Assembly: GCA_934162125.1 (NCBI GenBank)
Contig: CAKPHU010000001.1
Coordinates: forward strand, 121,352 to 185,351
Direction of reading: 5' to 3'
DNA length: 64,000 nt
From: an uncultured Bacilli bacterium
Lineage (GTDB): Bacteria; Bacillota_I; Bacilli_A; RF39; UBA660
Shown here: positions 57,555 to 64,000 of the stretch, piece by piece
How positions within the stretch are numbered: the first letter of the stretch is position 1
Layout: every line of letters starts with the position of its first letter
Translations under genes and position numbers: made by a program
Notes under the pieces: model-generated
The model's database searches: none
What the model was told of the DNA's origin: nothing
Seen by the model: the letters and a program-made list of their open reading frames with translations, nothing else

Positions 57555-58172
57555 TTAATATTCTTCTTTATTTACTAAATATGAAACTACTACTAGTTGT
57601 CTATCATTAGTATCTTTCTTACAAGTTATTAGTGTTAACGTATTCTGATTTAAGTCTCTACTTATTTCAACAGAGCCATCTTTTTTAACATCATATATCT
57701 CATCAATGTGGTAAGTATACTTTATTCCTTCATGATAGATATAGACAATGTCATTTAGTTCTAGACGATGAAATTGATTGAAGTAAGAAATACGAGCAGT
57801 ACCATTATGGGCTGCTAAAACGACATTTCCATTTACTTCTTGAGGTAGAGAACTTTCTTTTAGAATAGCAACATTTTTCTCAATTGTATTTTGATCTGAT
57901 TCTAATGAATAAACTCCTCTTTTTAAACCAATTTTAGGTATTTCTAAGATGAGTAGAAACTCCTCTTCCTTATTGTCAGAAGGTGGAGTTTCAATATTTT
58001 CCTTTTCTTCCTCTTTAACTTTAGAAGTATTTTCTAAATAATCATTTACCTTATTATTGTCTTCTGTTGTATGCTCTTTTTCAAGAAAAATAGGAACAAC
58101 TCCAATCATTATTCCTATTATCACAACAATTATTCCAAATGCTAGAGTTTTAGCTTTGCTTTTTTCTTGCAC
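57555..58172 (-). CDS. Sortase-family transpeptidase
   Basis: N-terminal membrane anchor, catalytic His region (LAAHNG) and the TLxTC Cys motif (LTLITCKKD). GTG start overlapping the upstream gene's end. Confidence 0.7.
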   Translation of the reverse strand: MQEKSKAKTLAFGIIVVIIGIMIGVVPIFLEKEHTTEDNNKVNDYLENTSKVKEEEKENIETPPSDNKEEEFLLILEIPKIGLKRGVYSLESDQNTIEKNVAILKESSLPQEVNGNVVLAAHNGTARISYFNQFHRLELNDIVYIYHEGIKYTYHIDEIYDVKKDGSVEISRDLNQNTLTLITCKKDTNDRQLVVVSYLVNKEEY

Positions 58173-58794
58173 TTATAATTATTCCTAATCCTATTAAAAC
58201 TATGATAATTGAAAATACAATTGTATAAGGAAAACTATTACTCATAGTATCTGGAGTTTCAACAATTTCAACAGGTGGTTTGCCATTATCATATTGAGCA
58301 TAGAATGACCAATCAATATATGATGATTCATTAAACTCTGTATTACCATAACTTTCAGATAATTTTGTTTCTACAACCATTTTAGAAGTCTTTGATGGTT
58401 CAAAATCTCCTAGTAGAATTGCTTGTTGAAGATCAATTCCTTGATTAGTATAGTCAAGGCCAGTAGCCTTTCCTTCATAGATAACTTTATCATCTAATTT
58501 AATTTTCATTATGATATTTTCTAGCAACTCATCTGCTTCAGCACTTTGACTTTTAGGTACAACTTTAAAAAATAAAGTATATTTTATTTTTGTTCCATTC
58601 TCAATAGTTAATTCATCTGTATAACTACTACCAGGAACCATATCCATATGCTTCATGAATACATCTTCATCTATTAATTTGCTTTCATAATATAGACGAT
58701 CATTTTCTTCTGTAAAATATAATCTGTTTTCTTTAGCTTGTACAGATATAGTACTAAGTACAAAAACAAATATTAATAATATGATTTTTTTCAT
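58150..58794 (-). CDS. Secreted protein with a cell-wall-sorting-signal-like C-terminus (motif region VETPDTMSNSFPY, hydrophobic helix, ARKKQS tail) but no canonical LPXTG; a candidate sortase substrate
   Basis: Sec signal peptide (ISVQA|KE) and a tripartite C-terminus, read directly. Immediately upstream of and overlapping the sortase gene. Confidence 0.5.
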   Translation of the reverse strand: MKKIILLIFVFVLSTISVQAKENRLYFTEENDRLYYESKLIDEDVFMKHMDMVPGSSYTDELTIENGTKIKYTLFFKVVPKSQSAEADELLENIIMKIKLDDKVIYEGKATGLDYTNQGIDLQQAILLGDFEPSKTSKMVVETKLSESYGNTEFNESSYIDWSFYAQYDNGKPPVEIVETPDTMSNSFPYTIVFSIIIVLIGLGIIISARKKQS

Positions 58795-58823
58795 AGCAAA
58801 CCTCCTAGTCCTTTCTTTGTTAA

Positions 58824-62637: not shown

Positions 62638-62699
62638 TATTATTATCTCCTTTCTTTATAATTTTAAGATCTATTTTTAATATATGTTGGTAAAACATA

Positions 62700-64000
62700 T
62701 CAATCACCTGTTTCAACTATGTAAGGACTCGCCATACTGCCATCACCATCAACATATTCTGTGCCTGGTTTTAGGGAAATAGCTGGACGTACTCCACTCG
62801 CACCACCAATAATATAGTGACTAAAGTTACCATTACTGCTGTAAACATTCCATACATTAGCGCCGTTATAACTGAAGCTGCCAGGAGAGCCCAACCAGTA
62901 GCCTTTACTTGTTTTTCGTATATTATTATTACCTAATAAATTCATCTCTTCATAGCTCATTAAACCCACTTTATATTTAAGCTTTGCTTTGCCATTTGAG
63001 GTACTAAATTGATCTGTTACGTTTAGACAGCTCAAATCACTTGAGCCAAAGTACATATTTGTGGATATACTTCCACCATTTAGATTCCAACCGTTTGTAT
63101 TCGTATTATTCTGACTTCTGTCATTGCAAAATATTGTATCTTCTAGGTGGTCAGAATATTCTAATAAATACCTTTCATACCATGCGTCTACCCCAGTTTT
63201 TATAGTCGAATTTTTTGTGTTAACATCATCATTATACAGCATCTCATTTTTTGCGTCTTCTATACTCTTACCATCTGTAAGTCTTATGAAGTAAATATGA
63301 GAACCACTGATAGAATTGATGTATTTTAATGTTTTACATTTTCCTGTTGTATTAGAGCATGTGTAATGTGCATTATTTAAACTTTCTTGATTAGTTGAGT
63401 CGGTTATGTTCCAGAAACTTATTGCATTATCATCATTTAAAAAATATTTATATGTTCCATCATCTGGATCTATTTTGTATTCAAAATCTTTAGCATACTT
63501 ATAATTTCTTGATACGTTCACATAATACATTGCTTGATTAGAAGTTGAAGTTGCATACCACAAATTACTGCACGTATTATTTGTTGCATTTTTACAAACA
63601 TATTTGTTTTCTACATTTGAATATCCCGTATACCAAATTTTTCTTTCGATTGTTGATGGATTATTTATTGTATATGTCCCATCACCATTATCAGTATAAT
63701 TATCACCATATGTATATACATCATTATAATAAGTTAAGTCATTTCCTGATTGTAGTCGAATATAATACATAGTTGAATTATTTACTTCGACAATGTAATA
63801 TACATCTGGACTAATATATGTTTCTGTTGTATTCCTTAATGTATATTTTCCTACTAAATTAACATAATCATTCGTTGATGAAACCTGATAAGGATTATTG
63901 AGACTATATCTATAACTGCTTTCGTCCCATGTTACTGTATCTGCATACCAATACTCCATTGAAAGTGATGCGTTTGTTGACATTGATTCTGTCGTAGTTA
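62700..64000 (-). CDS. Partial CDS (N-terminus beyond the window end): Asn/Tyr/Thr-rich secreted protein whose C-terminal region ends ...GASGVRPAISLKPGTEYVDGDGS...
   Basis: The frame is open from 62700 to the window end without a stop. First gene of the SipW/TasA/sortase cluster. Confidence 0.5.
   Translation of the reverse strand, partial: TTTESMSTNASLSMEYWYADTVTWDESSYRYSLNNPYQVSSTNDYVNLVGKYTLRNTTETYISPDVYYIVEVNNSTMYYIRLQSGNDLTYYNDVYTYGDNYTDNGDGTYTINNPSTIERKIWYTGYSNVENKYVCKNATNNTCSNLWYATSTSNQAMYYVNVSRNYKYAKDFEYKIDPDDGTYKYFLNDDNAISFWNITDSTNQESLNNAHYTCSNTTGKCKTLKYINSISGSHIYFIRLTDGKSIEDAKNEMLYNDDVNTKNSTIKTGVDAWYERYLLEYSDHLEDTIFCNDRSQNNTNTNGWNLNGGSISTNMYFGSSDLSCLNVTDQFSTSNGKAKLKYKVGLMSYEEMNLLGNNNIRKTSKGYWLGSPGSFSYNGANVWNVYSSNGNFSHYIIGGASGVRPAISLKPGTEYVDGDGSMASPYIVETGD

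Follow-up and report, generated by a model that had tools for sequence, protein, structure and literature searches.

A candidate BsaA/SipW-type surface-fibre operon with its own sortase and a predicted anchor protein in an uncultured member of the Bacilli

We have analysed a 64 000 nt stretch of DNA from an uncultured Bacilli bacterium (RF39; UBA660), positions 121,352 to 185,351 of contig CAKPHU010000001.1 (assembly GCA_934162125.1), which is referred to below as the window. Seven consecutive minus-strand genes between positions 57555 and 64000 probably form a single operon for a SipW-dependent surface fibre of the BsaA type, within the TasA superfamily, that is tethered to the cell wall by a sortase of its own. 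From upstream to downstream the order is a gene for a large protein with a VWA domain, genes B and C, the signal peptidase gene sipW (D), genes E and F, and the sortase gene (G); E and C are the candidate fibre subunits and F is the candidate anchor. Anchoring by the sortase is the best-supported reading, since F is the only open reading frame (ORF) of at least 80 aa in the window with a sorting-signal-like C terminus and its gene overlaps that of the sortase, and since F-like domains occur fused to BsaA domains and F follows a BsaA-like gene in all of the loci examined. A sequence-only reading of this DNA, made earlier without database searches, had pointed to a sortase and a neighbour with a sorting-signal-like C terminus downstream of the TasA/SipW genes and had proposed covalent, sortase-dependent anchoring. 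The gene pair is borne out, and the proposal stands as the reading that we prefer, although its mechanism is inferred and the idea is already in print.

Gene organization and conservation

All seven ORFs in the sequence-only reading were confirmed on the minus strand, as was their tight or overlapping packing. The sortase and F genes overlap by 23 nt, the F and E genes are separated by 29 nt, the E gene overlaps sipW by 14 nt (with a Shine–Dalgarno-supported start for a 211-aa E at position 59459) and sipW overlaps the C gene by 10 nt; farther upstream, gaps of 1 and 62 nt separate C from B and B from the VWA gene. A Shine–Dalgarno sequence can be recognized for every gene of the operon except that of the sortase, which starts with GTG, and no terminator-like site was seen on the coding strand between the genes. 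The G+C content of the window is about 30 %. No match to a TapA/YqxM model was found among nine proteins scanned, at E-values up to 0.1, in agreement with the earlier impression that no TapA is evident.

Proteins of the operon are present on many gut and rumen metagenome contigs, the nearest species-representative genomes being uncultured 'Erysipelotrichaceae' and 'Bacilli' metagenome-assembled genomes (MAGs). A scan of genome contigs with an F-family alignment reached only 10 loci, all in MAGs of uncultured Bacilli, Erysipelotrichaceae or Clostridia. Four related MAG loci (L004–L007), at 54–82 % protein identity, keep the complete order VWA-B-C-sipW-E-F-sortase, and because the seven-gene order recurs in this way the arrangement is conserved and not a chance juxtaposition. 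More distant loci (L008–L010) retain B, C, E and F, with sipW absent from some and a nearby sortase absent from all. To judge from these sequences, this is a real, conserved operon that belongs to the BsaA/SipW fibre class.

The candidate anchor protein F and its family

Gene F (58150–58794, minus strand) encodes a 214-aa secreted protein with a predicted beta-sandwich domain and a sorting-signal-like C terminus, which we regard as a candidate cell-wall anchor, or base, module. It has an ordinary Sec signal peptide (ending SVQA, followed by KEN), and at its C terminus (58153–58257, minus strand) the motif TPDTM is followed by 22 hydrophobic residues, SNSFPYTIVFSIIIVLIGLGIIISA, and then by RKKQS. 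No Pfam or NCBIfam match was found for F, the sorting-signal models TIGR01167 and TIGR03063 included. An exhaustive HMMER search placed it in a family that lacks annotation and comprises at least 298 clusters at 50 % identity, its relatives being listed as 'hypothetical protein'. In most members xPxTG, a membrane span and a basic tail make up the C terminus. The close relatives carry a motif of the form [S/T/A]P[D/N]TM.

Motif and fusion counts were taken from the best 150 of the 298 clusters. An xPxT motif is present in the tail of about 100 of these, most commonly as N/P/A/V-P-x-T-G followed by Asp. Among the residues of the C terminus the motif Thr is the most strongly conserved (56 of 62 aligned sequences), and the Pro is present in 31 of 36, with position five varying widely across the family; some distant members lack a PxT motif and end simply in a membrane span and a Lys-rich tail. 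In 20 of the 150 clusters an F-like domain is fused to a BsaA domain, such that an AYW/AYF SipW-type signal, the BsaA domain, the F-like domain and an xPKTGD sorting signal are found in one protein. The BsaA-family model TIGR04090 scores 151–184 bits in seven of these fusions that were scanned (approx. 470–675 aa) and 122 bits in an eighth of 431 aa (P0251); fused-anchor homologues bear the older label of that model, 'CPF_0494 family'. The F gene lies directly after a BsaA-like gene in L004–L010 and L013, the loci examined, and it is chiefly on this constant position and on the domain fusions that we base the view that F acts together with the fibre. The F-like domain appears to be a recurrent anchor module of fibres of this kind.

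In a further four of the 150 clusters an F-like domain is joined to a sortase. In these proteins (P0244, P0273, P0292 and P0320) the F-like domain and membrane span run into a sortase-like domain and there is no PxT motif; P0244 apparently also lacks the cysteine of TLxTC. These sequences may be genuine fusions, or they may result from miscalled overlapping genes.

An AlphaFold2 model of F built from a 63-sequence alignment is a single beta-sandwich predicted with high confidence (predicted local distance difference test score, pLDDT, 91.3; predicted template-modelling score, pTM, 0.79), and it replaces an earlier model from 17 close sequences (pLDDT 64.9). Its last confident strand (residues 175–179) ends three residues before the sorting motif. 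Structure prediction of this product had been suggested in the sequence-only reading as a way to look for TapA-like features; the confident sandwich has a TasA fibre as its best match in the PDB, but the likeness is weak. The Sulfolobus threads (7pnb) and Pyrobaculum bundling pili (7ueg) are also among the best matches, and these too are weak (Foldseek E-values 1.3e-3 to 3.4e-3, template-modelling scores 0.31–0.37). A TasA-like fold for F is plausible from this model. The N-terminal strand, ENKLYF in F, has the Asn in 46 of 63 stand-alone proteins and in 2 of 11 fused ones.

The sortase

Gene G (57555–58172, minus strand) encodes a 205-aa protein with an N-terminal membrane anchor that belongs to the sortases by its matches to PF04203 (71.3 bits, cut-off 26.6) and TIGR01076 (58.4 bits, cut-off 39.35). 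The catalytic His (in LAAHNG), Cys (in TLITC) and Arg (in DRQL) are all present. Scores against the class-specific models are 79.8 bits for class C (cut-off 160), 65.3 for SrtD (140), 47.5 for class D (165) and 43.8 for class E (160). The protein has neither a DP[FWY] lid nor a C-terminal membrane span. The nearest solved structure is that of the class D enzyme CpSrtD of Clostridium perfringens (4d70, 44 bits), and several of the top PDB matches are of class C. We considered whether CpSrtD might be the sortase linked to the bsa genes of that organism, and rejected it, as 4d70 is CPE_RS01475, which has its own LPQTGS substrate and lies at a different locus (PMC4498605).

The adjacency of the G and F genes is kept in L004–L007, so that with the window the pairing is found in five genomes. 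A different enzyme is found at locus L015, where the order is a VWA gene, five BsaA-family paralogues, SipW, a 584-aa fused anchor ending in LPKTGD and a class B sortase (TIGR03064, 176.5 bits, cut-off 153.75) that is unrelated to G at a phmmer E-value threshold of 0.1. We view L015 as a parallel locus with the same order as the window. Different lineages evidently pair the same anchor module with different sortases, and in the window clade the change of sortase accompanies the substitution of Met for Gly in the motif.

Fibre subunits and signal peptidase

The candidate major subunit is E (58824–59459, minus strand), of 211 aa from a start preceded by GGGAGGAG; the longest ORF reaches position 59477 (217 aa). 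It is a member of the BsaA family (TIGR04090, 116.8 bits, cut-off 60), it has a SipW-type signal (TIGR04088, 28.6 bits, cut-off 19; ...GVTFAYF) followed by the donor-strand motif TFSNIF, and its homologues are annotated 'BsaA family SipW-dependent biofilm matrix protein'. The putative minor subunit is C (59952–60557, minus strand), a 201-aa BsaA-like paralogue that shares about 30 % identity with E in tblastn. The SipW-type signal of C (...TTFAYYY) scores marginally under the TIGR04088 cut-off (18.4 bits), and C also has a donor-strand-like sequence, AIPNKF. Its TIGR04090 score is below the cut-off, and we regard C as a relative of BsaA and not as a certified member of the family.

Both proteins had been called TasA-like in the sequence-only reading, and this holds in a modified form, with E in the BsaA family, C just outside it and neither matching the Pfam TasA/camelysin model. 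The score of E against that model (PF12389, Peptidase_M73) is 14.3 bits (E-value 0.036), below the threshold of 22.5, and C gives no match to it; some homologues of E, at 57–73 % identity, carry a precomputed PF12389 match. A profile of the E family found only chance matches in the PDB (E-value 0.09 or worse), with no TasA chain among them. As the Pfam and PDB profile searches are both negative, the relationship of E to TasA is drawn from the literature, in which BsaA is described as a remote relative of TasA (PMC11580942).

Across 37 homologues of E, the most distant of them 57 % identical, K72 does not vary, and N43 and E56 are conserved at 90 % or more (numbering of the 217-aa form); the consensus after the signal is AYFTS.DTF.N.F.TKPY.MEV.E.FESP..W.PG..T.K. 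The same N-x-[FY] ... E ... PGxxxxK layout is found in the fused anchors and in a BsaA-family protein of L015 that scores 284 bits, and C and its orthologues keep the three residues in the same order (AIPN.F ... EE.F ... G.K). The residue pattern of E and C would fit the 'exchange and lock' mechanism proposed for BsaA of C. perfringens, in which an N-terminal donor strand is followed by an N35–K74 isopeptide bond catalysed by E56 (PMC11580942).

The signal peptidase D (59446–59961, minus strand; 171 aa) is a signal peptidase I of the SipW, or archaeal/endoplasmic reticulum, type, as the earlier reading had it (TIGR02228, 108.4 bits, cut-off 51.85), and the catalytic Ser, His and Asp motifs (SGSMEP, SHRIV and KGDAN) are seen in its translation. 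It scores 98.7 bits against the Bacillus SipW model NF046067, for which the cut-off is 190, and 25 bits against PF10502; since the NF046067 cut-off is missed, we refer to it as a SipW-type enzyme and not as a certified SipW orthologue.

The C termini of E and C (...NTSVTIN and ...GNVTWE) contain no sorting signal. For this reason we rejected the second suggestion of the sequence-only reading, a pilus-like, sortase-dependent polymerization of TasA-like subunits; BsaA of C. perfringens, moreover, polymerizes without the neighbouring sortase (PMC7395162).

Large surface proteins

Of the most upstream gene of the operon (62700–64000, minus strand), which encodes a 1157-aa protein, only the last 433 codons fall inside the window; its start and the region for the VWA domain are past the window end. 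The full gene is found on metagenome contigs that match the window in gene set and encode an identical F (L001:2622–6095, 1157 aa), and its product has a VWA domain (PF00092/PF13519) and a Listeria–Bacteroides repeat. It is the counterpart of C. perfringens BsaC, an identity that was missed when the gene was first described, correctly, as that of a partial secreted protein. B (60559–62637, minus strand) is a 692-aa surface protein with Flg_new/Flg_new_2 repeats and a DUF11 (CLIPPER) domain; the presence of Flg_new (37.9 bits) and DUF11 (32.8 bits) had been anticipated, and Flg_new_2 (57.6 bits), SHIRT (29.8 bits) and, weakly, a SpaA-like C-terminal domain are also matched. It has an N-terminal signal anchor ending in SFA and no sorting signal, and no sequence relative of B was found in the PDB. 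We consider it a candidate fibre-borne adhesin.

Directly past the N-terminal membrane span there is an invariant Asn in both of these proteins, within LLDNDxxV in six orthologues of B and G-x-N-[IV] in five of the VWA protein, and both sequences resemble the N-x-hydrophobic motif of donor strands, although the samples are small. The SipW-signal model does not match the N terminus of either protein. As a lead only, both proteins may attach to the fibre by means of a donor strand of their own.

Two of the sister loci, L004 (3425–6021) and L006 (3564–6153), have a diversity-generating retroelement between the VWA and B genes, consisting of a 120-nt template repeat and a 498-aa reverse transcriptase (PF00078, 68 bits). 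The variable repeat is the 3′ end of the VWA gene, encoding the C-terminal GYWLGSP...GVRPAISL region. Mismatches between template and variable repeat all fall on template adenines (19 of 19 and 24 of 24 in L004 and L006), and between the two loci the templates differ at one site and the variable repeats at 21. The window retains the scaffold of this variable region (62700–62900), with neither the template repeat nor the reverse transcriptase present in it. That a retroelement acts on the VWA orthologues of L004 and L006 lends independent support to an outward-facing, ligand-binding role for this protein.

A model for the fibre and alternative readings

We propose that the SipW-type peptidase would cleave the AYF-type signal peptides of E, the major subunit, and C, the minor one. 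E, and possibly C, would then polymerize outside the cell by donation of an N-terminal strand (TFSNIF or AIPNKF) into the beta-sandwich of a neighbour, as TasA and BsaA do, and the donated strand would probably be locked by a Glu-catalysed Asn–Lys isopeptide bond for which N43, E56 and K72 of E are the candidates. F would be exported by the general Sec pathway and join the fibre through its TasA-like beta-sandwich module, which in many other species immediately follows a BsaA domain in one protein, either accepting a strand from E or donating its own ENKLYF strand, the polarity of the fibre not being fixed by the model. The sortase would cut F after Thr183 of TPDTM and link it to peptidoglycan, making F the base of the fibre, and the 1157-aa VWA protein and the 692-aa B would be adhesive cargo, attached perhaps by donor strands of their own. 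A stronger version, which we put forward tentatively and think rather unlikely to hold in full, is of a fibre that is covalent throughout: F joined to peptidoglycan through the non-canonical [ST]PxTM signal, a BsaA chain locked by isopeptide bonds and adhesins attached in the same way, with no polymerizing sortase, and with a VWA tip that in sister species is additionally hypermutated by the retroelement. If true, this would be a third Gram-positive covalent pilus architecture, beside sortase-polymerized pili and non-covalent TasA fibres.

Several points weigh against the sortase-anchored fibre. The organism is uncultured and the fibre mechanism is predicted throughout; co-transcription is deduced from gene spacing alone, and a promoter/terminator scan did no better than on shuffled sequence (70 sites where 64.7 were expected, and 4 where 3.5 were). 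The motif of F has Met where canonical sorting signals have Gly, and we know of no precedent for Met at position five. G has no class B match and reaches none of the curated NCBIfam class cut-offs. The TIGR04090 score of C is 47.9 bits (E-value 1.4e-12) where the cut-off is 60, and the mapping of N43, E56 and K72 onto N35, E56 and K74 of BsaA is an inference and not a direct alignment. In a profile–profile comparison of the F and BsaA families the probability was 0.25 %, with only a PG...N.G strand aligned, and for this reason the TasA-like fold of F is plausible and not established; a search of PDB chains with the F-family profile gave no match. A sortase is absent from the cluster in L008–L010, L014 and L016 despite the presence of F-like or fused anchors. 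In C. perfringens strain 13, finally, BsaA fibres were unaffected by the adjacent sortase (PMC7395162) and were membrane-associated and not wall-linked (PMC7395162, PMC11580942).

Some of these points lend themselves to another explanation, which we nevertheless judge improbable: F would stay anchored in the membrane by its C terminus with TPDTM uncleaved, the fibre would be tethered to the membrane or released, and the sortase would act on substrates encoded elsewhere. The non-canonical motif, the distant family members with a membrane span and Lys-rich tail in place of a PxT motif, and the several related loci with no sortase in the cluster are all compatible with this, as are the BsaA oligomers of C. 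perfringens strain HN13, which are membrane-anchored and independent of srtB (PMC11580942, PMC7395162). Such a role for F is harder to reconcile with the conservation of the motif Thr and Pro, with the overlap of the F and sortase genes and their pairing in five genomes, and with the position of F as the sole candidate substrate in the window; the identity of the fifth residue, moreover, is variable throughout the family.

A ligase role for the sortase, joining Thr183 of F to a lysine of E, of C, of the SpaA-like domain of B or of F itself to give a hybrid pilus, seems very unlikely. The best class score of G is that for class C, to which several of its top PDB matches also belong, the last strand of the F model ends as close to the motif as in pilins, unlike wall-spanning anchors, and B has its weak SpaA-like domain; but G falls well short of the class C cut-off and has neither lid nor C-terminal span, the subunits carry no sorting signals, no pilin-motif lysine was identified, and BsaA polymerization elsewhere is sortase-independent (PMC7395162). 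We place equally little faith in the idea of F and the sortase as an independent surface-protein cassette, physically unconnected with the fibre of a neighbouring BsaA matrix operon: the lack of F–BsaA sequence similarity, the weak structural resemblance of F to TasA and an operon unity known from gene spacing alone would allow it, but the BsaA–F fusions, the location of F after a BsaA-like gene even in loci that have no sortase, and the 23-nt and 29-nt junctions with no terminator-like site on the coding strand argue against it.

Related loci and neighbouring genes

Two further loci, L014 and L016, encode a SipW and a fused BsaA/F-like anchor (P0478 and P0476, respectively) with no sortase in the cluster. 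Each has five upstream genes of 199–306 aa and one downstream gene of 704–719 aa with no recorded Pfam match, and when the 283-, 306- and 719-aa products of L014 were re-scanned against Pfam no match was found; these look like a further unannotated variant of the same kind of locus. The uncultured Bacilli MAG CASPWD01 (L010, L011, L012 and L013) has four separate F-like genes whose products are 42–43 % identical to F, at least two of them directly after BsaA-like genes, and there is no G-type sortase within 10 kb of any.

In the window, the sortase gene is followed after 80 nt by a small ORF (57275–57475, minus strand), which encodes 66 aa (63 aa as called on metagenome contigs) with an N-terminal hydrophobic segment and an acidic, Ser-rich tail and matches no family; it may or may not be part of the operon. 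The next segment (55810–57239, minus strand), directly downstream of the sortase, contains two tandem Tim44-like genes (PF04280, 50.6 and 42.8 bits), each encoding a C-terminal zinc ribbon, and in the first product there is also a stretch rich in Gly, Ser and Asp, as well as a membrane span. The genes of an ABC transporter pair follow. Approximately 31 kb from the fibre operon (24704–27068, minus strand) a gene for a PilC-like platform protein (two T2SSF domains, 178.9 bits) lies beside that of a prepilin peptidase (PF06750 Peptidase_A24 N-terminal domain, 103.3 bits; PF01478, 37.1 bits), with no pilin or ATPase gene noticed beside the pair. In C. perfringens, we note, BsaA oligomers and BsaC are reported to be exported with the help of type IV pilus proteins (PMC11580942). 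Two large minus-strand ORFs (37615–39393 and 40458–42500; 592 and 680 aa) have no Pfam match at an E-value of 1e-5 or better and sit just downstream of an AddAB-like helicase/nuclease pair (42728–48152).

Significance and comparison with known systems

How matrix fibres of the TasA/BsaA type are fixed to Gram-positive cells is still an unsettled question; the anchoring role of TapA in Bacillus is debated, and in C. perfringens strain 13 the anchor gene has apparently been lost by recombination. The operon described here is a compact locus in which each proposed part (tip adhesins, two subunits, SipW, stand-alone anchor and sortase) is a separate gene, and because the parts are separately encoded it should be convenient for heterologous reconstitution of a sortase-anchored fibre. 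It offers a minimal system for sortase anchoring of TasA-type fibres, and it points to the large unannotated family of F-like domains. Its value is incremental, as sortase/LPXTG anchoring of such fibres has already been proposed in two preprints (PMC11580942; 10.64898/2026.01.04.697558); the variant features of the window locus are a stand-alone anchor from an unannotated family, the [ST]PxTM signal and a sortase that cannot be classified.

The closest known counterpart is the bsa locus of C. perfringens, with sipW, bsaA, the BsaA-like bsaB, the VWA gene bsaC and an adjacent srtB (Obana 2020, PMC7395162; Kivimaki 2025 preprint, PMC11580942). There BsaA requires SipW, and polymers resistant to sodium dodecyl sulfate form without the sortase, an srtB mutation having no effect on them (PMC7395162). 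The exchange-and-lock mechanism is reported in Clostridia and some Coprobacillaceae, BsaA/TasA genes often adjoin genes for LPxTG and SpaA proteins, signal peptidases and sortases, and most C. perfringens strains have one BsaB-like gene with an LPXTG signal, whose product is speculated to be an SrtB-linked fibre anchor (PMC11580942). The window locus shares with bsa the SipW-type peptidase, a BsaA-family subunit with a SipW-type signal and the N/E/K candidates, a BsaA-like paralogue, a VWA protein and a nearby sortase. It differs in having the VWA gene first and the sortase gene last, on the same strand and overlapping the anchor gene, in the additional 692-aa Flg_new/DUF11 protein, in the motif [ST]P[DN]TM and a sortase that is not of class B, and in that no bsaRS two-component genes were seen in the window cluster. 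Its anchor, unlike the BsaB-like LPXTG protein, consists of an F-like domain on its own and carries an ordinary Sec signal.

With the tapA-sipW-tasA operon of B. subtilis and the TasA/CalY/CapP system of B. cereus (PMC13082335) it has in common a SipW beside subunits with AYF/AFF signals and the expected N-terminal donor-strand exchange; in the Bacillus systems, too, accessory proteins nucleate or anchor the fibre. The window has neither a TapA or CapP homologue nor a Peptidase_M73 match, whereas the Bacillus systems are sortase-independent (PMC13082335) and have non-covalent subunit contacts with no N-E-K triad (PMC11580942). A similar set of parts occurs in bacterial loci of the AbpX-like type of the TasA superfamily, which have LPXTG anchors and sortases and in which AlphaFold3 (AF3) models have the anchor joining the fibril by donor-strand complementation (10.64898/2026.01.04.697558). 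Predicted fibril subunit, minor subunits, tip proteins, dedicated signal peptidase, LPXTG anchor and sortase are the shared elements, but the window subunits are of the BsaA subfamily and the peptidases of AbpX loci have ten membrane helices.

The logic of tip adhesin, shaft and base anchor, the VWA tip adhesin, the sortase in the locus and a shaft that is likely to be covalent are all reminiscent of SpaA-type pili. Unlike those pilins, the shaft subunits of the window have no sorting signal or pilin motif, the sortase is not a lidded class C enzyme, and polymerization would be expected to proceed by strand exchange and not by sortase. The archaeal Sulfolobus threads (7pnb) and Pyrobaculum pili (7ueg) are TasA-like donor-strand filaments that are built without a sortase, and the likeness of F to them is weak and at the level of the fold.

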